DNA of 60,897 nt, counting the filler. It is 5 parts of 5 records of this genome, joined end to end, with 100 filler letters (N's around TTAATTAATTAA, not from the genome) between each part and the next. Parts side by side here need not be neighbours in the genome. Positions count along the whole stretch, not along the records: positions 10,751 to 22,516 come from DRR723986_4567; 4 more parts are not named here. One strand, written 5' to 3'. A program made the translations under genes and the position numbers. Positions within the stretch are counted from its first letter, which is position 1. The number at the start of each line of letters is the position of its first letter. This document shows positions 10,751-22,616 of this stretch, piece by piece. The notes beneath the pieces are model-generated. The model was given only the letters and a program-made list of their open reading frames with translations. It searched no databases and was not told the DNA's origin.

Positions 10751-11464
10751 GCCACCCCAGCCAAGTTCGTAGTAGGCCCACCAGCTACCCAGTGTGATAC
10801 CAATGGTTAAGAACAACCACGCGATATTGGTCCAGGGTCGTGACCACCGCGCCCAGCTGGCATCCATACGCCCGCTGAGTAAGGCTGCGATGGCAAAGGC
10901 GAACGCCACGGAAAAGCCCACGTAGCCGATGTAGAGCATCGGCGGGTGAATGACCATGCCAGGGTCTTGCAGCAGGGGGTTGAGGTCTTGGCCATCTGCA
11001 GGGGTATTCAGAAGGTTGCGCGCAAACGGGTTCGAGGTAAACAGGGCAAAGCCGAAGAAGCCAATGGCAACCATGCCCATGACCGACAGCACTCTCGCCA
11101 AAATATCCAAGGGGAGTTGCTTGGAAAACACCGCCACGGCAACGGTCCACAGGGTCAGAATCTCCAACCACAATAACAAGGAGCCCTCGTGCCCACCCCA
11201 CAGCGCACTGAATTTATACGCGACGGGCAATTGAGAGTTGGACTGCAGCGCCACAATATTGACGGAGAAATCATCGCTGAGAAAAGCGTAAAACAGGGCG
11301 CTTATGGCCAGCGTGGTGAACAGACACTGCCCCCACGCCAGGGTCGCGCCTGCAGCCATTGCGCGCCGGTCTCCACGCCAGACACCCAACATGGGAACAA
11401 CCGCTAATAACAGCGCAAAAGCAAAACCAAGAATGAGCGAGAAGTGCCCCAGTTCAATAATCAC
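10751..11464 (-). CDS. ccmF: Cytochrome c heme lyase CcmF, N-terminal part
   Basis: [47 protein letters not shown]; truncated by spacer. Confidence 0.95.
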
Positions 11465-11940
11465 GAGCCGTTGTACTCCTTGCCTGCTGTCGCCTCCTCG
11501 GCACGTGACTGCGCAGATTTTTCCAGGGCTTCGCTGACTTCCGGCGGCATATAATTTTCGTCGTGTTTGGCTAGCACTTCATCCGCGTAAAACACCCCGT
11601 CTTCAGCAAGCCGACCGGTAACCACCACGCCTTCGCCCTCGGCGAAGAGATCAGGCAAGATCCCTTCATAGGCCACCGCTACGCTGGCACTGTAATCCGT
11701 CACGCGAAAGCGAACTTTCAGGCTGTCAGTGGCACGCTCCACGGAGCCCTCTTCCACCATCCCGCCAGCGCGAATCTTTTTGTCGACCGGCGCTTTGCCC
11801 GCGACAATATCGGCAGGTGGGTAAAACAGGTTAATGTTCTCTCGCAAGGCGTAACCCAAGAACGCCGCCGCTGCCGCACTGGCAAGTAAAATAAACACGA
11901 CGATTCCAAGGCGCTGTTTACGCAGGGGGTGCATGGCCAT
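11461..11940 (-). CDS. ccmE: Heme chaperone CcmE
   Basis: N-terminal [19 protein letters not shown] heme-binding motif. Confidence 0.95.
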
Positions 11941-11961
11941 TACAGCCTCCGTAGCAATAAT

Positions 11962-12147
11962 TTAAAACTGATTTTCAGCCTGACGGCGGCGGGCCGCTGC
12001 CGCCGCTAGCGCCCGCGCATTGCGACCGCGACGCCGCGACTCAAATACCAGAGCACACAGCACGATCGCACTGGCGGCAAAACTGAACCACACGTAAGGG
12101 CCGTGACCATCCATTTGCCAAAGCTGTTGAAGATTTGCAAATACCAC
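11962..12147 (-). CDS. ccmD: Heme exporter protein CcmD
   Basis: MDGHGPYVW motif, single TM, basic tail, position between ccmC and ccmE. Confidence 0.9.
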   Translation of the reverse strand: MVFANLQQLWQMDGHGPYVWFSFAASAIVLCALVFESRRRGRNARALAAAAARRRQAENQF

Positions 12148-12160
12148 TATTACCTCTCCC

Positions 12161-12904
12161 TTACTTGCCGCTCACCAACGCTTGCACCCAACGGGTATTT
12201 TTCTCTCGCTCAATGATCTCGGCGCGAACGAACAGCAACAGTACCCAGCCAAAAAACAGATACATACCGCTGAGCGTTGCCATCAACGGGCGCAACATCG
12301 TCGGGTGAATCGTTGATTCACCGACAAACTTGATGCTGGCAGGCTGGTGCAGGCTATACCACCACTCCACAGACCAGTAGATGATCGGGATGTTCACCGC
12401 GCCAACAATTGCCAGCACCGCGCAAGCGCGCGCAGCGGCGTCGCGGTTTTCAAAAGCTTGATGCAGGGCGATCAGCCCCAGATACAGGAAAAACAGAATC
12501 AATACGGACGTGATGCGGGCGTCCCACACCCACCATGTTCCCCAGGTGGGCTTCCCCCACACAGCGCCAGTCAACAGCGCAAGAAACGTCAGTGCTGCGC
12601 CAATCGGCGCCGCGGATTTCATGACAATGGCCGCCAGCTTCATACGCCATATCAAATGTACTGCGGCTGCGGTTGCCATCAGCATATAGCCGCCCATCGC
12701 AACGGCGGCGGCGGGAACGTGGATGTAGATAATGCGGAAACTATTCCCCTGCTTAAAATCAGCGGGTACAAAGGCGAGCCCCCACACACAACCCCCAACA
12801 AGCAGTAGCAAGGCGGGAATCGCCAACCAAGGCAACAGGCGCCCGCTAAATTGGTAAAACCAGCGTGGGGAGCCCCATTTGTGAAACCATTGCCAATTTG
12901 CCAA
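12161..12904 (-). CDS. ccmC: Heme exporter protein CcmC
   Basis: RIIYIHVP, WGKPTWGTWWVWDAR (WWD motif), WWYSLHQ. Confidence 0.95.
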   Translation of the reverse strand: MANWQWFHKWGSPRWFYQFSGRLLPWLAIPALLLLVGGCVWGLAFVPADFKQGNSFRIIYIHVPAAAVAMGGYMLMATAAAVHLIWRMKLAAIVMKSAAPIGAALTFLALLTGAVWGKPTWGTWWVWDARITSVLILFFLYLGLIALHQAFENRDAAARACAVLAIVGAVNIPIIYWSVEWWYSLHQPASIKFVGESTIHPTMLRPLMATLSGMYLFFGWVLLLFVRAEIIEREKNTRWVQALVSGK

Positions 12905-12934
12905 AGCCTGTCTTTCCTTAATTCAAACCAATAC

Positions 12935-13621
12935 TTACTGATCCACGCTAATGCGCAGGGCGCCCCCAATGGCCAGCGGCGCCAGCGCGAGGGCTGTCAT
13001 CAACAGCGCCGCCAACACCGCCAGCGGCGGCAGATATGCCATGCCATCGATGGCGCTTTTCACCGCTGCACTGCCAAAAATCAACACCGGAATATACAGG
13101 GGTAAGACAATCAACGACAGCAATAGTCCACCCTTGCGCAAACCGACCGTCAAGGCGGCGCCAATCGCACCGATAAAACTCAATACCGCCGTGCCAAGCA
13201 ACAGGCTAACCATCAGTACAACAAGCCCCTCAGAGGGCAACTGCAGGATGGTTGCCAACAAAGGCGACAACAGGCTCAGCGGCAAACCACTGACCAGCCA
13301 GTGACCGAAGGTCTTCGCCAACACCAGTGGGTACAGCGGTAGCGGGCTCAACAACAGCTGTTCCAAAGTCGCGTCGTCGTAGTCTCCGCGGAACAGGCCA
13401 TCTGTTGCCATCATTGACGCCAGCAAGGCCACCACCCAGATAATGCCCGGTGCTAACACGGCCAGTTGCTGCCGCTCGGGGCCGATACCCAGCGGAAACA
13501 AACTGCAAACCATTAAGAAAAACAGCAGGGGGTTGCTCCACTCGCTACCGCGTCGCAGCGCAGCCTGCAAGTCGCGTCGCAACACGGCAAACATTACCGC
13601 ACCAGTGCCCATCGGGATCAC
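12935..13621 (-). CDS. ccmB: Heme exporter protein CcmB
   Basis: LFPLGIGP, DYDDATLEQL, LPLYIPVLIFG; GTG start overlapping ccmA stop (alternative ATG 13612). Confidence 0.93.
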   Translation of the reverse strand: MIPMGTGAVMFAVLRRDLQAALRRGSEWSNPLLFFLMVCSLFPLGIGPERQQLAVLAPGIIWVVALLASMMATDGLFRGDYDDATLEQLLLSPLPLYPLVLAKTFGHWLVSGLPLSLLSPLLATILQLPSEGLVVLMVSLLLGTAVLSFIGAIGAALTVGLRKGGLLLSLIVLPLYIPVLIFGSAAVKSAIDGMAYLPPLAVLAALLMTALALAPLAIGGALRISVDQ

Positions 13622-14256
13622 GACGCCTTCCCCAGCTCTATACGGCGCAATGGACGGGGCAAGGACAGTGGATGGTGGGTGGTTAACAACACCATTCCCC
13701 CGTTGTCGGCAAAGTCGCAGATCCACCGCTCTATTTCCGCGACGCCGCGCTGATCTATAGCGGTGAAAGGCTCATCCAATAACCAAAGCCGGGCCGGGCA
13801 GCAAAATAGTCGCGCCAGATTTACACGTCGCTGCTGACCCGCTGACAAGCTGTAGCAGGGCTGCTGAATAAAGTCGCCCAGCCCCACTGTCGTCAGGGCG
13901 CGATGCAAATCGGTGTCGGCAACATGCTGCCCCCGCACCGCACAACTCCAACGCAGGTTTTCCAGGGCGGTCAGCTGCGCTTTGATACCGCTGCCGTGCC
14001 CCAGGTACAAACTGTGCTGCCGAAAGTCTTCGCGCTGGGTGATCAAATTCTCACCCCGCCAGTGAATGTCGCCCTCGTAGCGTGAGGACAAACCGGCGAG
14101 AATCTTTAGCAACGTGGTCTTGCCACTGCCATTGGGGCCGGCCAGTTGCACAACGTCTCCAGCGCTAACAGACAGCGACAGGCCCGCAAACAACACGCGC
14201 TCATCTCGCTCGCTGTATAGGTTGTGTAACTTGAGGTCTGGTGGCGACAAACTCAC
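13618..14256 (-). CDS. ccmA: Heme ABC exporter ATP-binding protein CcmA
   Basis: GPNGSGKTT, LSAGQQRRV, LWLLDEPF, LTTH. Confidence 0.95.
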   Translation of the reverse strand: MSLSPPDLKLHNLYSERDERVLFAGLSLSVSAGDVVQLAGPNGSGKTTLLKILAGLSSRYEGDIHWRGENLITQREDFRQHSLYLGHGSGIKAQLTALENLRWSCAVRGQHVADTDLHRALTTVGLGDFIQQPCYSLSAGQQRRVNLARLFCCPARLWLLDEPFTAIDQRGVAEIERWICDFADNGGMVLLTTHHPLSLPRPLRRIELGKAS

Positions 14257-14420
14257 TCTCGCTGCTCAAGGCCACCGCATGGCGGCAGTCCGATTTAAAA
14301 CGCGGCTAAGTATATACGAAATAACATCGAAATCCGCGCCCGGAATCTGGCGCGGCAATTTGTCGCAGCGGCAAAAGCCTCGCTGACAGGCTGGTGAGTG
14401 CACCCACTACGAGATGGCGG

Positions 14421-15236
14421 TTACTGACCGCCAGATTGATGGCGCTGTAGCCAGCGCTCCATATCCTGGGTCACGAGGTCGAGGTAGGCTAACGCCTTAT
14501 TCAGCTTGTCGCCCTCACTCTCACCCCGGAATCCCATCAAGCGATTGCGCACCCAGGCCAATTCGCTGACGAGGTCACTGATTTGCGGCTCGCTGACACG
14601 CGCCGCCGCGGGTGCCGATTTCAATTCCTTGTCCACCACCGAAGTCGCTGGGCTATACAGGCTATCCAGCAAGGTGTTCAATTTTGCATCGGATTGCGGC
14701 GCGCGACCGGAGGTGGCGGCAGGCCGTGGGTTCGCAGCCGATGACCGCCCCCCTGCTGCCGCGTCGAAAAATACATCCAGTAAGGCATCGCCACTACGCG
14801 GCGCGGGCGCGTCAGGCTTCGCTTTCGACTCGTCACCAGCCTGCCCTGCAGCCTTCAGCAGGCGTCCTCTGAGTTCATCGGGAATACGATTAACGGTTTG
14901 GTGATTAATCAGCCGGCTCAACATCACTTCAATCGCGCTTGTCGCGCCGATAATCAGCGAAACCAGACTCGGGCTGAGGGCAATACGCCGCGTTCTGAGC
15001 CTATCCATTACGCGTTCACTTAAACGCGCACACTCGGTTAGCTCGGCCAGTTCCAGGACCGCAGCACCGCCATAGAGGGTGTGAAAGCCGCGGTGGATAT
15101 CATCCAGTATTCGCTGACCATCATAGCCGTACTGCAGCTCTTCCAGCTGCGCAAACAAGCCCTTAACAATATCTTCGGCTTCCGCCAAAAATATCGCCAG
15201 GATACCTTCGTGTTCGTTTGCGTCCACAGTATGCAC
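14421..15236 (-). CDS. Truncated CheA-derived protein: P1 (Hpt) + linker + dimerization-like helices, no ATP-binding or CheW-like domain
   Basis: FLAEAEDIV...IHRGFHTLYGGAAVL matches the CheA P1 pattern IFRGFHTVKGGAGFL; C-terminal LVSELAWVRNRL...LDLVTQDM matches the CheA P3 pattern; stop follows directly. Confidence 0.75.
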   Translation of the reverse strand: MHTVDANEHEGILAIFLAEAEDIVKGLFAQLEELQYGYDGQRILDDIHRGFHTLYGGAAVLELAELTECARLSERVMDRLRTRRIALSPSLVSLIIGATSAIEVMLSRLINHQTVNRIPDELRGRLLKAAGQAGDESKAKPDAPAPRSGDALLDVFFDAAAGGRSSAANPRPAATSGRAPQSDAKLNTLLDSLYSPATSVVDKELKSAPAAARVSEPQISDLVSELAWVRNRLMGFRGESEGDKLNKALAYLDLVTQDMERWLQRHQSGGQ

Positions 15237-15364
15237 TCTATTGTTATTGATCTCAGGCCAGCTGGATCAGCGAATCCGGGTTCGTAATGGCTGGCAATTA
15301 TGCGCAAAGTCTTGCAGTAACACTGTTGGCCCGGTCACAAAGGGCCGATTTTGTAATCAAATGG

Positions 15365-15832
15365 TCATGTTTTCGACGTATTCGTGCAAAACAGCTCACG
15401 AATTTTGCTTTCCAGCATTGCCGCCGTAAACGGCTTAACGATGTAGGCATCCACCCCAGCCTGCGCAGCGGCGAGGATTTTTTCCCGCTGCGCGTCAGCC
15501 GTGACGATCATCACCGGTATATGCCTCAGGGCACTATCGGCGCGAATAACCCGCAACAGCTCCAACCCTCCCATTTCAGGCATCAACAGATCGGTAATCA
15601 CTAAGTCGAAGTGTTGGTTGTGAAGCATGGGCAATGCCACGCTGCCATCATCAGCTTCACTAATGCGCGCATAACCCAGATCGTTAAGCAAATTGCGCAT
15701 CACACGACGCATGGTGGCGAAATCCTCGACCACCAGAATTCTGATATCGCGCAAGGACGACGCCCCCCGGGCGGGCGAGTCGCTGGCGACATCACTGCTG
15801 GCAAAAGGATCGGGGGAGCGCTCATCACTCAT
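15365..15832 (-). CDS. cheY: Chemotaxis response regulator CheY (with ~25-aa N-terminal extension)
   Basis: ILVVEDFATMRR, VITD phosphoacceptor, VTA, YIVKPFTA; start overlaps fleN end. Confidence 0.88.
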   Translation of the reverse strand: MSDERSPDPFASSDVASDSPARGASSLRDIRILVVEDFATMRRVMRNLLNDLGYARISEADDGSVALPMLHNQHFDLVITDLLMPEMGGLELLRVIRADSALRHIPVMIVTADAQREKILAAAQAGVDAYIVKPFTAAMLESKIRELFCTNTSKT

Positions 15833-16652
15833 GCGGCGCCTCCATTCCAACGGGCTGCTGAATCAGGTTCTCTAGGAAAAACGCAAGCTGGCCCGACGGC
15901 TTGCGCGGCAGAGGCCAATCGCTCACCCGCGTTGCCAAGTCCCGGAACGCCCGCGAGGCCGGTGCACTCGGGGCATAATCGACCACTGGCTGTTGCTTTT
16001 TCACCGCCTCTCTCAATGCCGGGTCAAATGGAATGCTGCCGCTGTAGATGAGACTGACTGTTAAAAACTGCTCGCAGACACCTGCCAGCTTTTGAACCAA
16101 GCGGCGCCCCTCATCTTCGTCGCTAACCATATTGGCCAGAATGCGGAAACGTTGGCGGCCAAAATCACGATTCAATAATTTGATCAGCGCATAGGCGTCG
16201 GTCAGTGACGAGGGCTCATTACAAACCACCACCAGCACCTCCTGGCAGGCGTTGGTAAAGGTTAAAACGGTGTCGGTGATCCCCGCTGCCGTGTCGACGA
16301 TCAATACGTCCAGCTGCGCGGCCAGGTCACTGAATGCCCGGATCACGCCGGCATGCTGTAACTCACTCAGGCGAGTCAGCTGCCGTGCGCCGGAGGATGC
16401 CGGGATAATGCGCACACCAGACGGCCCGCTAATCATTGCTTCTTCCAGTGAGCACTCGCCGCTAAGGACCTGCTCAATAGTCTGCGGGGCCGACAGCGAC
16501 AACAAAACATCAACGTTAGCCAAGCCAAAGTCGGCGTCGAGAATCGCCACGCGCTTACCCTGGTGCGCCAGCGCCACAGCGGTATTGATAGCGACATTGG
16601 TTTTTCCTACACCGCCTTTGCCGCCGCTTACCCCAATAACCTGAACCGTCAT
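15825..16652 (-). CDS. fleN: MinD-like ATPase FleN/FlhG
   Basis: GGKGGVGKTN deviant Walker A, DADFGLANVD, DTAAGI, EPSSLTDAYALIK, C-terminal amphipathic FFLENLI. Confidence 0.9.
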   Translation of the reverse strand: MTVQVIGVSGGKGGVGKTNVAINTAVALAHQGKRVAILDADFGLANVDVLLSLSAPQTIEQVLSGECSLEEAMISGPSGVRIIPASSGARQLTRLSELQHAGVIRAFSDLAAQLDVLIVDTAAGITDTVLTFTNACQEVLVVVCNEPSSLTDAYALIKLLNRDFGRQRFRILANMVSDEDEGRRLVQKLAGVCEQFLTVSLIYSGSIPFDPALREAVKKQQPVVDYAPSAPASRAFRDLATRVSDWPLPRKPSGQLAFFLENLIQQPVGMEAPHE

Positions 16653-17206
16653 AAAGCGCGTCTCCCGGCAAGGGTGTTTTGTGGGTATCGATAGCTACCA
16701 AGATAGCGGTGCCGGGTATCGAGGTATCGCAATCCGATTTGGGCCAGCTCGCGCCTAAGCAGCCGCTGATGCAATGTGGGGCAATCAACAAATACCAGCC
16801 CGCTGGCGGTCGACCACGCTTCCCGGTATGCCTCATACACGGGGTTTACGCGCATGGTGCCGAGTAAGCCGCCCAGCCAAAGCCCAAAGAAAATCAACGC
16901 GCTGGGCAGGGCGTAGCGAACCACTGCCTGCATCGCCTCGGAGAGCTCGCGGCTGTATGGCCAGAGCACGGTAATCAACACCGCTGACATGACGGCGGCC
17001 CAGACTGCACCACGCCAGCTGAGCCCAGGAATATCACTCAGCTGCAGCTCATTGAGATGTGGCAACGACGCTGCCGGAGAACGCGCCTCGTCCCTCGCCC
17101 ACAATCGCAGGCGCCAGTGCGTGCCCTGCTCACGCTGCATCTGCGCCCAACATTCCAGCGCAGACAATGCGGATGCATCGGGAATAACAAATACCAGTTT
17201 ATTCAT
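16649..17206 (-). CDS. Hypothetical two-TM membrane protein
   Basis: 185 aa, two hydrophobic segments (WRGAVWAAVMSAVLITVLWPY; ALPSALIFFGLWLGGLLG); 3 nt after fliN stop, ATGA overlap with fleN. Confidence 0.7.
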   Translation of the reverse strand: MNKLVFVIPDASALSALECWAQMQREQGTHWRLRLWARDEARSPAASLPHLNELQLSDIPGLSWRGAVWAAVMSAVLITVLWPYSRELSEAMQAVVRYALPSALIFFGLWLGGLLGTMRVNPVYEAYREAWSTASGLVFVDCPTLHQRLLRRELAQIGLRYLDTRHRYLGSYRYPQNTLAGRRAL

Positions 17207-17209
17207 AAG

Positions 17210-17599
17210 CTATCGCAGCGACTGCAAACGTTCGGTGGCACTCACAACCTCGGTCAGCCGAATACCAAGTTTGTCATCAACCACCACCACCTCTCCCCGC
17301 GCAATCAGTCGGCCATTGACGAGGACATCCAGCGGTTCACCTGCTTGGCGGTCCAGCTCCACCACTGCGCCCTGCTGTAACTGCAGCAGGTCGCGGATGG
17401 CCATGTCACTGCCACCCACCTCTAGCGTGACGCGGACGGGAATGTCCATCACCATATCGAGGTCCGGCGCCGCCGCTGTGCGCTCTCGAAGCCGGGCCTG
17501 CCCCAACAGGTCAGACGCTCCAGACGACTCTCCCTCTTCCGCTTCTATTTGTTGGCGCAGCATCTCACGCTCTCGCCGCAGGTTTTCTGGCTCTGTCAT
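17210..17599 (-). CDS. fliN: Flagellar switch protein FliN
   Basis: LDMVMDIPVRVTLEVG, GEPLDVLVNGRLIARGEVVVV SpoA domain. Confidence 0.93.
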   Translation of the reverse strand: MTEPENLRREREMLRQQIEAEEGESSGASDLLGQARLRERTAAAPDLDMVMDIPVRVTLEVGGSDMAIRDLLQLQQGAVVELDRQAGEPLDVLVNGRLIARGEVVVVDDKLGIRLTEVVSATERLQSLR

Positions 17600-17617
17600 T
17601 GCCTCACTCCTTATACG

Positions 17618-18571
17618 CTATGCGCGCCCTTTTATTTTTAACGCCAACTGCCCCTTGCTCATACCGACACTGGCCTTGAGCAGCGATACGCCGGATGCCC
17701 GAATTTCCGCTTGCTGACAACTCCCCAAGCTCAGCACATCCCCCACTTTTAAATTGGCGACCTGCCCCAGTGTCATCGCCTTATCTGCCAACACGCAGCG
17801 GGTAGGCAGTGGCGTATCCAGCACGGCGCGCTGCATGGCGCCTTGCCACTGCGGGTCGGGTGCCCGGCTCTGCGCCAGCTCACTCTGAGAGAGACTCTCA
17901 CGCAAGGGCTCGAGCATTGCCAGAGGAAAACACATATGTAGCTCGCCACCGCCGCCGCCCTCGGCATCCAATTGAAAACGGCAAACCACAACGGTGTCCG
18001 CCGCGCCAACGATATTGGCCAGCGAGGGATTCAACTCGGTGCCCATCGGCTTACATTGCAGTGCGGCAACAGGCTTGCACGCTTCTTCAAAGTCAGCGTG
18101 AGCGCGGCTGAGGAGCTTGCCGATCAAACGTCGCTCGGAGGGGCTAAAATCGCGACCATCCGGCACACCCTGGGCCTCGCTGCCGCCGAAGTAGATTTCC
18201 ACTAAGCGAAAGACCAAGCGCGCATCAAAGACCATCATCGCCGTACCCAGTAGCGGCTCGACGCGCATTAAATTCATACTTGAGGGGATATACAGCGAAT
18301 GAAGATATTCCGCGTAGGGCGAGAATTGTAGCTCCAGCAGGCTGACATCAACGTCCTGCCCCAGCACGTCGAGCAAACTACTGCGAAAATGTTCGGCAAA
18401 GCGCTTACTCAGTTGCTCTAAACCCGGCAGGCGACGTGCCTTCGGTTGCTGCCGAGTCGCCAGATCAAACTGGGCATAGCTGGGCTTGGGCTCGATGCCG
18501 GGAACTGCTGGCTCGTCCTTCACGGCGGCCAGTAGCGCGTCTATCTCTGCTTGAGAAAGCAAATCCTTCAT
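17618..18571 (-). CDS. fliM: Flagellar switch protein FliM
   Basis: N-terminal DLLSQAEIDALL CheY-binding peptide, FGG motif, RDFSPSE, C-terminal SpoA (LKVGDVL). Confidence 0.9.
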   Translation of the reverse strand: MKDLLSQAEIDALLAAVKDEPAVPGIEPKPSYAQFDLATRQQPKARRLPGLEQLSKRFAEHFRSSLLDVLGQDVDVSLLELQFSPYAEYLHSLYIPSSMNLMRVEPLLGTAMMVFDARLVFRLVEIYFGGSEAQGVPDGRDFSPSERRLIGKLLSRAHADFEEACKPVAALQCKPMGTELNPSLANIVGAADTVVVCRFQLDAEGGGGGELHMCFPLAMLEPLRESLSQSELAQSRAPDPQWQGAMQRAVLDTPLPTRCVLADKAMTLGQVANLKVGDVLSLGSCQQAEIRASGVSLLKASVGMSKGQLALKIKGRA

Positions 18572-18610
18572 CGCTGCTTCTGCCCCCTCGGCCACCACCA
18601 GCCTGTGTTA

Positions 18611-18624
18611 GTCAAAAAAATGAC
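18611..18624. promoter_or_regulatory. FleQ-type binding site upstream of fliM
   Basis: GTCAAAAAAATGAC, the exact reverse complement of the box at 20295-20308; fits the GTCA-A/T-rich-TGAC FleQ consensus. Confidence 0.6.
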
Positions 18625-18630
18625 GCGCAC

Positions 18631-18963
18631 TTAACAACGCTCCCTGAGTACCCGAAGTGTTATTGCCAAATGTTCCTCAACACGCCGAAGCGCCAGGTTT
18701 GCCGCCGCGGAATCTGTGTCCTTTGCAGCACCCTCCAGGCACTTGCACTCCTCAGCCAAAGCCAATGCAGCCATCCCTAATGCCCCCCCTTTTAAGGTGT
18801 GCGCAATGCGTCGTAGCCGCTCAAAGTCGCTGGCGGCGAAGGCGTCTTGCGCATCAGCGATACGCTGCTGACAATCGCGCTCAAAACTCGCGACCAACAC
18901 ACCGATATCACTGCCCATAACCCGCCGAAGTTCGTCGTATTGTTGCTGGTCAATTGTTGTCAT
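18631..18963 (-). CDS. Stand-alone Hpt phosphotransfer protein (HptB-like)
   Basis: AHTLKGGA motif with the phosphorylatable His; ~110 aa helical; position between fliG and fliM. Confidence 0.85.
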   Translation of the reverse strand: MTTIDQQQYDELRRVMGSDIGVLVASFERDCQQRIADAQDAFAASDFERLRRIAHTLKGGALGMAALALAEECKCLEGAAKDTDSAAANLALRRVEEHLAITLRVLRERC

Positions 18964-18992
18964 AGCTATCCCTGCAAAAGCCAATAAGCGGG

Positions 18993-20273
18993 TTAGTTTC
19001 CAAGTGATAATTTGCGACTGTCGAGCACGATCTCGCCAACACCTGCCAGCCGTTTAGCGGCGGCAACAAGCTCCTGTTTGGCGAGCTCTACTTCGCCATT
19101 AGAGGGCTGCCCAAGCAGACGCTCTTCAGGGTGCTGACTCTGCAGCGCGTTTTGCAATGCCGCACGTAATTCACCGGTGGCGCCTTCAAGCGCACGCAGG
19201 GCGGTCTGCGGGTTGAGCTGAGACACCAGATTTTTCATATCGGCCTCCGTCAAGCGCTGCAACTGATCAAACCCAAACATCTGGTCTTCAACACGCTCGG
19301 CCAGGCCTGGGCGATGCTCCCTCAAGCCCTCCAACAACGCACTTTCATCGGCAACATCCAGCTCATTAAGCAACGCGGCTGCCAGGCTTTCCCCGGTTAA
19401 ACGGCGGCCACTGTGGCCACGCGCGTTCAAGTATTCTTCAATCAACCAATCCAATTCCGCCAACGCAGCGGTCGACAGGGACTCCAACGACGCCAAACGG
19501 CTGAGTAACTCCCTGCGTCGCTGGGGGTCAAAACAGGTAATAACGGCCGCCCCCTGCGCTGGTTCCAAACAGGCGATCAGTACGGCCTGTATTTGCGGAT
19601 GCTCCCTGCGAAGCATGTCCGCTATGGTATCTGCCGCCAACCATTTCAATTTAGCGATCTGCTGCGACTGCCCCTGCAGCGCCAGGTTGCTTTTCACCAG
19701 GGCCGCCCGCTCTTCACCGAGGGCCTCCTCAAGCAAATCGCGAATATCTTCTGCCTGGCTGGGCCGCACCAGGGAAAACTGCAGCATATCGTCGTTAAAG
19801 CGTGCCAGTAATTGCGCTAGCTGCCCGGCATCCGGCGTTGCCAGGGTGGCCATGTAGCCGGTCAATGCTTGAATTCGTTCCGGGCTGAATTCACGCATCA
19901 CGCTTGCGGCAACTTTCGCCTCCAGGGCCATTAGCACCATGGCGGCTTGCTCGGGGGAGCACTGTGAGGTTTGCCCGTCCAGCCAGTGATCAATCACCGC
20001 CGCGACACGCGCTGGTTCACCCTCAGCGGTGGTGCGCAGCAAACGCAAATGAACACCGTAGTCGACCCGTTTATGTTTTTTGACTCGGGGTTTGGTCGCT
20101 GGCTGCGACATAAGTTGTATAAATAGCGCTACGGAGAGGCTTGCGCCGCCGGACAACAGGCTCACACTGAGCCACTCCGCCTGCCTGAGCAGCGCCGCGA
20201 CCGCTGCACCGCCGAGCAATGCGACCAGCAGGAAAAACTGGAATGTAATCAGCACGCGCGGGGCTATTGCCAT
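18993..20273 (-). CDS. fliG: FliG with N-terminal TM anchor and FliF C-terminal motif (FliF'-FliG fusion)
   Basis: Two N-terminal hydrophobic segments; YGVHLRLLRTTAEGEPARVAAVIDHWL (FliF C-tail pattern); then FliG motifs ALGEERA, EHPQ, MFGF, GEIVL. Confidence 0.8.
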   Translation of the reverse strand: MAIAPRVLITFQFFLLVALLGGAAVAALLRQAEWLSVSLLSGGASLSVALFIQLMSQPATKPRVKKHKRVDYGVHLRLLRTTAEGEPARVAAVIDHWLDGQTSQCSPEQAAMVLMALEAKVAASVMREFSPERIQALTGYMATLATPDAGQLAQLLARFNDDMLQFSLVRPSQAEDIRDLLEEALGEERAALVKSNLALQGQSQQIAKLKWLAADTIADMLRREHPQIQAVLIACLEPAQGAAVITCFDPQRRRELLSRLASLESLSTAALAELDWLIEEYLNARGHSGRRLTGESLAAALLNELDVADESALLEGLREHRPGLAERVEDQMFGFDQLQRLTEADMKNLVSQLNPQTALRALEGATGELRAALQNALQSQHPEERLLGQPSNGEVELAKQELVAAAKRLAGVGEIVLDSRKLSLGN

Positions 20274-20294
20274 TGGCTAGCCCCTCCACTAATA

Positions 20295-20356
20295 GTCATT
20301 TTTTTGACAGCGCTGATTTTCAAAGCCACTCAAACCCGTTTCGTCAAATTATTGAC
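20295..20356. promoter_or_regulatory. Pair of FleQ-type boxes in the leader of the fliFG operon
   Basis: GTCATTTTTTTGAC (20295-20308) and GTCAAATTATTGAC (20343-20356). Confidence 0.65.
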
Positions 20357-20426
20357 AGTAGCACCTGCGCATATACATTGGTTATCAATGACTTACGCGA
20401 CTAGTTACTGCCTACACTGACTGTAA

Positions 20427-20442
20427 TGCAGGTTTTAGGCCA
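20427..20442 (-). promoter_or_regulatory. Putative sigma54 (-24/-12) promoter of the switch operon
   Basis: Minus strand TGGCCTAAAACCTGCA = GG-N10-GC, pointing toward fliFG. Confidence 0.55.
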
Positions 20443-20449
20443 GCTGAGC

Positions 20450-21364
20450 TTACAGCCGCACTTCGACAAAAGGCAGAGACTGAGGGCCACCCGCATCAAT
20501 GCTCTGGGCGGCGTCAAAGGGGTGAGCCTCGCGCTCGGCAGAGCGGTCAATATTGAGGTTGGCAAAGTCAAACAAGTCGCGATCTGCGAGCTGTGAGGGA
20601 GCAATGTTTTGCATTGCCGAGAAAATTTTCTCTATACGGCTACCATCCTGCTTTTCCCACTCCAGAAGCATCTTGCGGATATTCTGGCGCTGCAGATTTT
20701 CTTGCGAACCACAGAGGTTGCAGGGAATGATGGGGAACGCTTTATAGGCTGAAAAGCGTTCGATATCCGCCTCCCGGCAATACGCCAGCGGACGAATAAT
20801 GACGTTGCGCTTGTCGTCAGACAGCAGCTTTGGCGGCATCGCAGCCATCCTGGAGCCATAGAACATATTCAAAAACAGCGTCTGTACGATATCGTCTTTG
20901 TGGTGTCCGAGCGCGATTTTCGTGGCGCCAATTTGCTCGGCAAAGCCGTACAGCGTTCCCCGCCGGAGTCGCGAACACAACCCACAGGTGGTCTTGCCCT
21001 CGGGGATTTTCTCTTTGACGATTGAGTAGGTGTCTTTGTTAACAATGTAGTACTCGATACCCAGCGTCTCGAGGTATTCGGGAAGAACATGCTCAGGGAA
21101 GCCCGGCTGCTTCTGGTCCATATTCACCGCGATCAACTCGAAGGAGACCGGTGCGCTCTTTTGCAGGTTCATCAGGATATCGAGCATGGTGTAACTGTCT
21201 TTACCACCGGACAGGCAAACCATTACCCGGTCGCCCTCTTCGATCATCTGAAAATCCTCTATCGCCTGCCCGGTGTGGCGGCGAAGGCGCTTCTGCAACT
21301 TGTTAAATTCCAGCTTAGACATTGCCGGCGTCGCAGAACTCGGGGTTTCAGAAGCGGAAAACAT
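20450..21364 (-). CDS. ttcA: tRNA 2-thiocytidine(32) synthetase TtcA
   Basis: SGGKDS PP-loop, [24 protein letters not shown]; start chosen at MFSASE. Confidence 0.95.
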
Positions 21365-21658
21365 AGCTATTGCCTGTGTATCGGTGAACGAAGACGAGCG
21401 GCGCATTATATAGAGTTGGCTAAATATCAGCCACAAAGGCTTGAAAAATTCCCCTTCCGGCGTTGGAAACGCCGCTGCGACTGGTAATCTTTGCCTTAGG
21501 TGTCTATTATTAGCGCGCCAAAATCTGCTGGCATGAGGTGTTATTTTTACACGGCCAGACCCCGGCACGGGTGCATGCCGGATTGTGTAATCCACGTCCG
21601 GTCGCACCCGCTCACAACCGGCTTAAGACCAGATCACTTACCAGAAAGGGAACGCTCC

Positions 21659-22516
21659 ATGAAACAACCCGTTCGTGTCACCGTTACCGGTGCAGCAGGC
21701 CAGATTGGCTATGCACTGCTTTTCCGTATCGCTTCCGGCGCTATGCTGGGCGACGATCAGCCCGTCATTCTGCAACTGCTGGACATCACTCCTGCTCTGG
21801 ACGCGCTGGAAGGCGTAAAAATGGAGCTTGAAGACTGTGCCTTCCCACTGCTGAGCGGTGTTGTCTGCACTGACGACCCCAATGTTGGCTTCAAGGACAG
21901 CGATTACGCCCTGCTTGTTGGCGCTCGCCCACGTGGCCCCGGCATGGAGCGCAAGGACCTGCTGGAAGCAAATGCCGCGATCTTCTCTGTTCAGGGTAAA
22001 GCGATCGACGAAAATGCCAGCAAAGATATCAAAGTACTGGTAGTCGGCAACCCTGCCAACACCAACGCTCTGATCACTCAGCGCAATGCGCCTTCTATCA
22101 ACCCGCGCAACTTCACAGCAATGACTCGCCTGGACCACAACCGCGCGATGACGCAGATTGCTCAGAAAACCGGCAAAACCGTTAACGACGTAACGAACAT
22201 GACCATCTGGGGCAACCACTCTGCCACTCAGTACCCGGATCTGTTCAACGCAAAAGTTGCGGGTGAAACGGCCTCTGACCTGGTTGATCAAGAATGGCTG
22301 GAGAACGACTTCATCCCAACGGTTCAGCAGCGTGGCGCAGCCATCATCAAGGCACGCGGTGCGTCTTCTGCAGCGTCAGCAGCCAATGCGGCTATCGACC
22401 ACATGCGCAGCTGGGCACTGGGTACTGAAGGCGACGACTGGGTATCTATGGGCGTATACAGCGACGGTAGCTACGGCATTCAAGAAGGCCTGATCTACTC
22501 CTTCCCCTGCCGCTGC
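21659..22516 (+). CDS. mdh: Malate dehydrogenase (type 2), 3'-truncated
   Basis: [46 protein letters not shown]. Confidence 0.96.
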
Positions 22517-22616
22517 NNNNNNNNNNNNNNNNNNNNNNNNNNNNNNNNNNNNNNNNNNNNTTAATTAATTAANNNNNNNNNNNNNNNNNNNNNNNNNNNN
22601 NNNNNNNNNNNNNNNN
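22517..22616. other. Artificial contig-joining spacer
   Basis: N44-TTAATTAATTAA-N44. Confidence 0.98.

Follow-up and report, generated by a model that had tools for sequence, protein, structure and literature searches.

A locus of eight genes, fliF'-fliG2, hpt, fliM2, fliN2, orf185, flhG2, cheY2 and cheA', lies between ttcA and ccmA at positions 14,421 to 20,442 of the DNA analysed here (the window: 60,897 nucleotides in five joined parts, of which the one at 10,751 to 22,516 comes from DRR723986_4567 and carries the locus). Comparison across the Spongiibacteraceae indicates that the locus is the remainder, left in place, of an ancestral Pseudomonas-type polar flagellar/chemotaxis cluster of this family, and that a different, divergent cluster now builds the flagellum. 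We propose, with a probability of roughly 0.55 for the package as a whole, that the retained proteins form a non-rotating switch complex at the membrane, which reads phosphorylated CheY2 (CheY2-P) and has a regulatory output.

The eight co-oriented open reading frames (ORFs) are all open and lie in tandem on the minus strand between 20273 and 14421. The first, fliF'-fliG2 (18993-20273), encodes a protein of 426 aa in which about 105 extra N-terminal residues precede the Pfam domains FliG_N, FliG_M and FliG_C. It is followed by hpt (18631-18984), encoding a single-domain histidine phosphotransfer protein of 117 aa (Pfam Hpt, E 8.7e-11), by fliM2 (17618-18598; 326 aa, Pfam FliM and FliMN_C) and fliN2 (17210-17599; 129 aa, FliMN_C), and by orf185 (16649-17206), the 185-aa product of which matches no Pfam family and has hydrophobic segments at residues 66-84 and 100-118. 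The last three genes are flhG2/fleN2 (15825-16652; 275 aa, a MinD/ParA-type ATPase by Pfam), cheY2 (15365-15850; 161 aa, receiver domain) and cheA' (14421-15236; 271 aa, with Hpt as its sole Pfam domain). Upstream stands ttcA (20450-21607; TtcA, 478.5 bits against a cut-off of 272) and downstream ccmA (13618-14256; CcmA, 255.4 bits against 195). By their coordinates, fliG2 and hpt are 8 nt apart and fliN2 and orf185 3 nt, orf185 and flhG2 share a 4-nt ATGA overlap, and flhG2 and cheY2 overlap by 26 nt with the TTG start of cheY2 or by 8 nt with the next start, its first ATG. The preliminary description of this DNA had reported the same eight-gene run, 3-nt gap and ATGA overlap, which the ORFs, Pfam domains and coordinates bear out; its 8-nt overlap holds with the first ATG of cheY2. 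It was also right that the locus lacks export, structural, stator, sigma-28 and adaptation genes: none for the export gate, rod or hook, stator, sigma-28 or adaptation was found among the ORFs and Pfam domains between ttcA and ccmA.

The DNA comes from Spongiibacter marinus or a closely related strain. The FliG-like protein of the window is 98-99% identical to proteins named for S. marinus, and the locus of S. marinus DSM 17750 (L001) matches the window at 99%; our genome-wide statements for the window rest on the near-identical genome of this strain (G001). The preliminary description had called the system flagellum-less, and this proved wrong. One FlhA, two FliM and two FliG were found per genome in G001 and four relatives (5/5), the single FlhA being located away from the ttcA-ccmA locus in each, and at least two FliM matches were obtained in 35 of 40 genomes of the family (one match in four genomes, none in one). 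An ordinary flagellar cluster is located on contig 8 of G001 and starts from flg genes and flagellin. It also encodes FliD, FliS, FliT, two receiver-less sigma-54 activators, FliE (assigned from position and homology), the switch proteins FliF (541 aa), FliG (342 aa), FliM (317 aa) and FliN (89 aa), and FlhA, FlhF, FleN, FliA and a DUF2802 protein. The cluster ends with fliA-DUF2802 (L083:2027-3193), after which unrelated genes follow; no cheY, cheZ, cheA, cheB or mot block stands after fliA. Zhongshania species with the same second locus bear a single polar flagellum by cryo-transmission electron microscopy, as described in part of one report (PMC12216289), and Spongiibacter nanhainus is described as motile in passages of another (PMC8805636). 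Because the flagellar cluster comes with switch genes of its own, those of the ttcA-ccmA locus make up a second, orphan set in a bacterium that has a flagellum. The two sets are old paralogues, with identities of 25% for FliG2/FliG1, 27% for FliM2/FliM1, 61% for FliN and 50% for FlhG. The preliminary description had also envisaged that the missing flagellar genes stand elsewhere and use the window genes as their only switch. The first half is correct, since flhA, fliC and a full-length fliF, as well as a complete cheA on contig 2, occur in G001 outside the locus; the second half is not, own switch genes being present there.

The origin of the locus can be read from outgroup genomes. Two outgroup loci, L019 and L020, carry ttcA-fliE-F-G-H-I-hpt-fliK-L-M-N-P-Q-R at the corresponding site, an order which supports the earlier proposal of collinearity with the Pseudomonas-type cluster; L027 and L044 are similar. 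All outgroup genomes with a full ttcA-site cluster have a single FliM (5/5). Because outgroups carry the full cluster at this site, the mini cluster is taken to be the ancestral cluster after repeated deletions. The gene hpt still sits at its ancestral position, between fliJ and fliK, and an hpt-like match lies between fliI and fliK in L019 and L020. In a FliM tree, which was a quick search to which long-branch warnings apply, the FliMs of the module group as a single clade with an SH-aLRT of 99, nested within the polar-type FliMs of gammaproteobacteria, and the FliM of the flagellar cluster (FliM1) stands outside them on a branch of 2.73. The FliG tree recovered both paralogue clades, on long branches and without resolved placement. 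Separate deletions probably removed fliE with most of fliF, fliHIJ, fliK-L, fliO-flhF, fliA with cheZ, and the cheA kinase core onward. Each of them seems to have spared a switch or phosphorelay gene, and together they left a set of proteins that bind one another.

What is left of fliF is a short extension of FliG2. It contains two N-terminal hydrophobic segments (residues 7-25 and about 34-55) and, at about residues 70-102, the C-terminal FliG-binding tail of FliF. A profile of the Zhongshania mini-FliF aligns through its positions 164-228 with residues 39-102 (E 5e-7) and, in turn, with the last 150-210 residues of full-length FliF proteins; the label fliF given to this part earlier is thereby supported. 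Residues 79-98 are 40% identical to FliF1 residues 517-536, with an E value of 0.063 on its own. The 426-aa protein has no YscJ_FliF (PF01514) match; only its second transmembrane segment and tail resemble FliF, and the Zhongshania mini-FliF lacks a Pfam FliF match as well. In Zhongshania the mini-FliF is a separate protein of 232-238 aa with a transmembrane segment, a partial periplasmic domain, a second transmembrane segment and the tail. In the lineage of locus L085 such a FliF remnant is fused to FliG (545 aa), and in Spongiibacter the periplasmic part is gone and the hairpin and tail are fused to FliG. These remnants form a reduction series. Spongiibacter and the L085 lineage fuse different FliF remnants to FliG, and natural FliF-FliG fusions arose at least twice.

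The FliG part of the protein retains all three domains above their cut-offs (PF14842 71.6, PF14841 76.4 and PF01706 55.9 bits), although it remains below the cut-off of TIGR00207 (151.2 vs 226.7 bits), which FliG1 passes with 300.3 bits. Charged residues of the FliG torque helix contact the stator protein MotA. In FliG2 these charges (the SKRA..L.DD..GP.R block) are missing or deleted in all 16 sequences of the module, while the SKRA..DD motif is kept in 3/3 FliG1 and 6/6 canonical FliG sequences. The EHPQ motif of the middle domain, which contacts FliM, is invariant in FliG2 (E224, H225, P226 and Q227 in 18 sequences), as is the longer EHPQIQA motif. Thus, FliG2 is predicted to be held at the membrane through a FliF stub that has no ring-building domains and, lacking the stator-contacting charges, to be torque-dead. 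The non-rotating, membrane-tethered FliG/M/N platform of the preliminary description fits these features well, with the FliF stub as the putative tether.

The interface for phosphorylated CheY appears to be preserved in FliM2. The protein passes TIGR01397 (230.2 bits against 219.6, model positions 1-317) and has the canonical N-terminus LSQAEIDALL (LSQxEIDALL), the putative CheY-P-binding peptide, in 16 of 16 sequences, with S15, Q16, E18, D20, A21, L22 and L23 invariant. FliN2 passes TIGR02480 (112.7 bits against 84.05) and has 45 invariant columns across 15 sequences; it also matches SctQ models, weakly. FliM1 (L082:13141-14094), in comparison, reaches 173.0 bits against the FliM cut-off of 219.6, with a match that begins at position 29 of the model. 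Its N-terminus reads ILDPEELEALM, a conserved motif, and a search of 5.8 billion proteins detected only 45 relatives, mostly unnamed. FliM1 is an unusually divergent motor FliM. Between G001 and G002 its ratio of non-synonymous to synonymous substitution rates (dN/dS) is 0.033, that of FliN1 is 0.0 and the flagellar genes overall range from 0.00 to 0.047. For annotation this is a warning: the FliM above the family-model cut-off is here not the FliM of the flagellar cluster.

CheY2 has an N-terminal extension of about 35 aa. Its nearest solved relative is CheY3 of Vibrio cholerae (3TO5, E 2.4e-42), with enteric CheY next. Its score stays below the NF007901 cut-off (152.6 vs 189 bits), and NF007901 is still its top family. 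CheY2 was the sole match in G001 at E<=1e-15 in a search for CheY2-like proteins and is the only canonical motor-type CheY of this genome. G001 has a single complete che cluster, on contig 2, with CheY, CheA (688 aa, all four domains present), CheW, STAS, CheD, HDOD, CheR and methyl-accepting chemotaxis proteins. The nearest relative of the contig-2 CheY is V. cholerae CheY4 (4H60, E 9.6e-38), which, according to part of one study, can be phosphorylated and does not bind FliM (PMC3774744). The histidines of Hpt are invariant. In the orthologue alignment CheA' consists of a P1/Hpt domain, a variable linker and a conserved C-terminal module of two helices; the P1 domain matches the CheA P1 structure 1TQG (E 6.9e-6). 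No kinase (HATPase_c), CheW-like or H-kinase_dim domain was found in 13 of 13 orthologues, Hpt being the sole family. A P3 remnant was considered for the C-terminal module and remains a guess, as a local alignment with the beginning of the P3 domain of the contig-2 CheA was non-significant (E 5.5) and H-kinase_dim did not match in any of the 13 orthologues. Separately, three outgroup loci with full flagellar clusters have a receiver gene that resembles cheY2 (47-50% identity) in the interval from fliI to fliK, at L027:13674-14024, L040:13677-14030 and L051:4421-4774; it occupies the place that hpt has elsewhere.

The module is well conserved. Alignment of FliG2 yielded 16 loci, 13 of which have ttcA, the eight genes and ccmA in unchanged order, the other three being cut by contig ends. 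Among 14 further loci, found around high-scoring FliM of other family genomes, 11 have the full set. As L096 and L098 duplicate L012 and L016, 28 distinct loci remain, and all eight genes occur in the same order and at the same site in 22 of them, from several genera. Locus L097 is without orf185. The lineage of L085 and L091 is without hpt and flhG2 but keeps FliG2, FliM2, FliN2 and CheY2. In a comparison of the window with the locus of Neomelitea salexigens (L002) by the Nei-Gojobori method, dN/dS was 0.097 for fliG2, 0.19 for hpt, 0.025 for fliM2, 0.035 for fliN2, 0.21 for orf185, 0.046 for flhG2, 0.047 for cheY2 and 0.088 for cheA', with 0.033 and 0.105 for the flanking genes. The module is thus under purifying selection across the family, and selective retention rather than random decay, as suggested in the preliminary description, agrees with both the conserved order and these ratios. 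The same description had conceded that the genes might be a decaying relic, with dN/dS near 1 and frameshifts, and this finds no counterpart in the data. It is highly improbable that the module is functionless and slowly decaying, even though evolution is faster in FliG2, Hpt and Orf185 than in the flagellar genes and two genomes have lost it. In G007 ttcA lies directly beside ccmA and the module is gone, and no CheY2-like protein was found in this genome. In G017 (L121, G017:C16:14000-30000) just a cheY2 fragment and the P1 of cheA' stand between ttcA and ccmA, which is a late stage of module loss; these remnants lie at about 10478-11024 of L121, the cheY2 fragment being C-terminal (query residues 95-154). 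Both genomes retain FlhA and, because they lost the module and yet keep this gene, the module counts as accessory, and the flagellar genes can do without it. For this lineage, a decaying relic is rejected because gene order is conserved and dN/dS is 0.025-0.21; all eight ORFs are intact in the 22 complete loci, the FliM2 peptide, EHPQIQA of FliG2 and the Hpt histidines are invariant, and boxes in the promoter region are conserved.

These boxes are palindromes of the FleQ type (GTCA-W6-TGAC). Two lie at 20295..20356 in the leader upstream of fliF'-fliG2, and a third at 18611..18624 between hpt and fliM2, the ancestral position of the fliL/fliM promoter. Three are observed in the window against 0.01 expected, and copies are conserved at the same places in other family loci. 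The sequence has been proposed as FleQ consensus of P. aeruginosa and P. putida at fliE, fliL, flhA and fleS, in passages of a study which also state that the motif is no reliable genome-wide predictor in P. fluorescens (PMC6120874). G001 and G002 each have three strict boxes, and all six sites fall within the ttcA-ccmA locus, with none elsewhere (one and two matches, respectively, for a reversed-pattern control). G004 (Zhongshania aliphaticivorans) has seven, three of them in the locus (control four), and G005 has five, two of them in the locus (control three). Far from the module, G004 has a further pair of strict boxes 59 bp apart (G004:C1:402832-402904), which may mark another target of the same regulator. 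Just past the ttcA stop, at approximately 20428..20442 on the minus strand, there is a sigma-54-like -24/-12 element (TGGCC-N7-CTGC), and 16 of 19 loci have an element of this GG-N10-GC form ahead of the boxes. Strict sigma-28 and sigma-54 scans of the locus gave no other convincing site. The element would be a promoter and the boxes would be bound by a FleQ-type protein. A search for the FleQ domain (PF06490) returned weak matches alone, to a 213-aa protein in G001 and to proteins of 460-467 aa in Zhongshania, and no sigma-54 activator was apparent in the window, as judged by ORF sizes and N-termini and not by a domain scan. Potentially, the two receiver-less sigma-54 activators in the fliT-fliE interval of contig 8 (L082:2781-3857 and L082:4274-5290; 358 and 338 aa) are the box-binding proteins; they have AAA+ and helix-turn-helix domains alone, without a receiver or FleQ N-domain. 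Contigs from RNA libraries of four studies span the whole locus at about 98-99% identity. Because they cover genes, spacers and flanks alike, they are a weak hint of expression, and DNA in the RNA libraries is possible.

FlhG2 could connect the complex to an output. FlhG2 has ParA/CbiA/AAA_31 domains by Pfam and a GKGGVGKT P-loop, which was read in the sequence; it is 49.8% identical to FleN1 of the flagellar cluster over 263 aa (BLASTP). Its amphipathic C-terminal LxFF end, QLAFFLENLIQ, resembles that of FleN1 (NLEFFVDRMMQ) by eye. In other family loci having flhG2 the protein is 58-69% identical to that of the window (97% in L001 and L002). Orf185 has no Pfam or NCBIfam family, and Atlas gave unnamed clusters alone. 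Its AF2 (AlphaFold2) model (mean pLDDT 83.5) comprises a hairpin of two transmembrane segments and a split cytoplasmic alpha/beta domain, and a fold search gave a weak ActD-like match (E 0.018, TM score about 0.3). The wider unnamed family has 582 representatives and was matched in 65 out of 300 gammaproteobacterial genomes sampled, a number that includes three flagged unpublished (G084, G341 and G186). Orf185 itself turned up at 26 loci, each time between ttcA and ccmA, and no flagellar gene lies within 1.5 kb of 13 relatives from other gammaproteobacteria. A remnant of fliO-flhF was ruled out because Orf185 has no profile match to those ORFs, nor to canonical flagellar ORFs in general; it is not of flagellar origin and was recruited into the module. 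Complex prediction of Orf185 with FliM2, FliN2 and FliG2(100-426) scored 0.00; it was run without controls and is uninformative either way. A second paralogue of the Orf185 family lies outside the module (G001:C5:202231-202692, 189-aa frame, E 3.2e-21).

Polar control of division by proteins of this kind has been reported for Campylobacter, and the preliminary description had suggested a polar landmark or division-site role. FlhG2 and the tethered FliG/M/N would then mark the pole or block polar division, in line with the MinD-type ATPase, its FleN-like amphipathic end, its conservation and the translational coupling of flhG2 to orf185. However, MinE was found in 4 of 5 genomes searched, so that these bacteria do not lack a Min system, FliG2, FliM2, FliN2 and CheY2 persist in the L085/L091 lineage without flhG2, and a second FleN is already encoded in the flagellar cluster. 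The idea is weakened by the MinE matches and by the modules without flhG, and we regard it as improbable.

Taken as a non-rotating switch complex with regulatory output, the module would work as follows. FliF'-FliG2, FliM2 and FliN2 would assemble on the inner membrane, and CheY2 would be phosphorylated through Hpt and/or the orphan CheA P1, which a hybrid kinase, or in trans the one complete CheA of the genome, might feed. CheY2-P would dock on FliM2, and the CheY2/FliM2 pair would be insulated from the motor pair, i.e., the CheY4-like CheY and FliM1 with its divergent N-terminus. The output would be regulatory, not mechanical, most likely through FlhG2 on flagellar number, placement or a FleQ-type regulon; alternatively, the complex might buffer CheY-P. 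Several observations weigh against this scheme. FliM1 also has an EIDAL-like peptide, and for this reason CheY2 might act on the real motor. The FliF stub, without ring-building domains, may leave oligomerisation of the complex doubtful. An output through FlhG is not universal, since the L085/L091 lineage has no flhG2 (and no hpt), and G007 and G017 have lost the module altogether or down to fragments. The promoter role of the sigma-54 element and a FleQ-type protein at the boxes are both putative, and the flagellar cluster has no strict box; degenerate boxes there (six matches with two mismatches in L082, mostly intragenic, and none in L081) were not convincing.

A rival explanation is a split motor, in which FliM2, FliN2 and CheY2 exchange into the real C-ring for CheY-dependent switching and FliM1 is a structural variant. 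FliM2 is the one above the equivalog cut-off and FliM1 the one below, the flagellar cluster ends at fliA-DUF2802 without che genes, and CheY2 is the sole canonical CheY in G001, all of which would suit such an exchange. Nevertheless, we consider it unlikely, as flagellar genes persist in G007 and G017 although fliG2, fliM2 and fliN2 are gone (in G007 also any CheY2-like protein), FliM1 and FliN1 are under strong purifying selection, with a conserved N-terminal motif in FliM1, and the conservation of a torque-dead FliG2 that carries a membrane stub would stay unexplained.

If the non-rotating complex exists as proposed, it is tempting to speculate that a C-ring has turned into a stand-alone signalling device in a swimming bacterium, with two orthogonal CheY-switch circuits, one mechanical and one regulatory; we advance this tentatively. 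The private CheY would then be the ancestral motor CheY and the working motor would have moved to a different CheY/FliM pair, a step that is conceivable and somewhat doubtful.

Comparison with known systems helps to place the module. It shares with the polar C-ring of the Pseudomonas/Vibrio type homologous proteins, the ancestral order and site, EHPQ of FliG, the CheY-binding peptide of FliM, the SpoA domain of FliN, the FliG-binding tail of FliF and FleQ-type boxes. Unlike this C-ring, it has no ring-building FliF domains and no stator-contacting charges in FliG, its locus has no export gate, rod, hook or stator genes, and a complete switch set is present separately in the same genome. By analogy, the working system nearest to the module is the sorting platform of injectisomes (SctQ pods on SctD), likewise a non-rotating, membrane-tethered assembly of FliM/FliN homologues. 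In contrast to that platform, the module derives from flagellar FliM, FliN and FliG rather than Sct proteins and has a CheY input and no ATPase or export apparatus. Spirochetes carry an extra FliG paralogue that does not generate torque (FliG1 vs FliG2), and so resemble the module in having a second, non-torque FliG. The module, however, retains a whole set (FliF stub, FliG, FliM, FliN, FlhG, CheY and Hpt proteins), and its FliG is membrane-anchored. In Rhodobacter sphaeroides, where CheA is split, the P1 of CheA3 is phosphorylated in trans by CheA4. A kinase-less P1 protein such as CheA' could be phosphorylated in the same way, although it lacks a P5 domain. The pair of CheY2 and contig-2 CheY parallels V. 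cholerae CheY3 and CheY4, and the content of the contig-2 cluster (CheY, CheA, CheW, CheD, CheR) resembles V. cholerae cluster III. CheY3 lies within a complete cluster II (CheA, CheZ, CheB, CheW), whereas the module keeps just CheY and a CheA P1. Engineered FliF-FliG fusions of Salmonella and Vibrio indicate that a covalent link is compatible with assembly, as described in PMC11481574 and related papers; unlike these, the natural fusions are without RBM1, RBM2 and most or all of RBM3.

No description of the module was found in the literature on Spongiibacter flagella, FliG/FliM paralogues or switch-gene remnants, supplementary tables not being covered. Rotor proteins without a flagellum are usually dismissed as remnants. 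The locus offers a clean natural case in which mutually binding switch and phosphorelay proteins survived several deletions, with the torque interface lost and the CheY interface kept. It could reveal what a non-rotating C-ring does and how two CheY-FliM pairs stay apart in one cell. These questions are testable, as gene deletions have already been made in S. nanhainus according to passages of the report on this species (PMC8805636).

Finally, the identity between the window and L001 is uneven. From ttcA to fliN2 the proteins are 99-100% identical, and from orf185 to ccmA 92-97%, with a synonymous rate (dS) of 0.13-0.34; in the latter part the distance to L001 equals that to N. salexigens (L002). 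This suggests a recombination breakpoint near 17.2 kb in the window. N letters also occur in the window at about 22561-22572.

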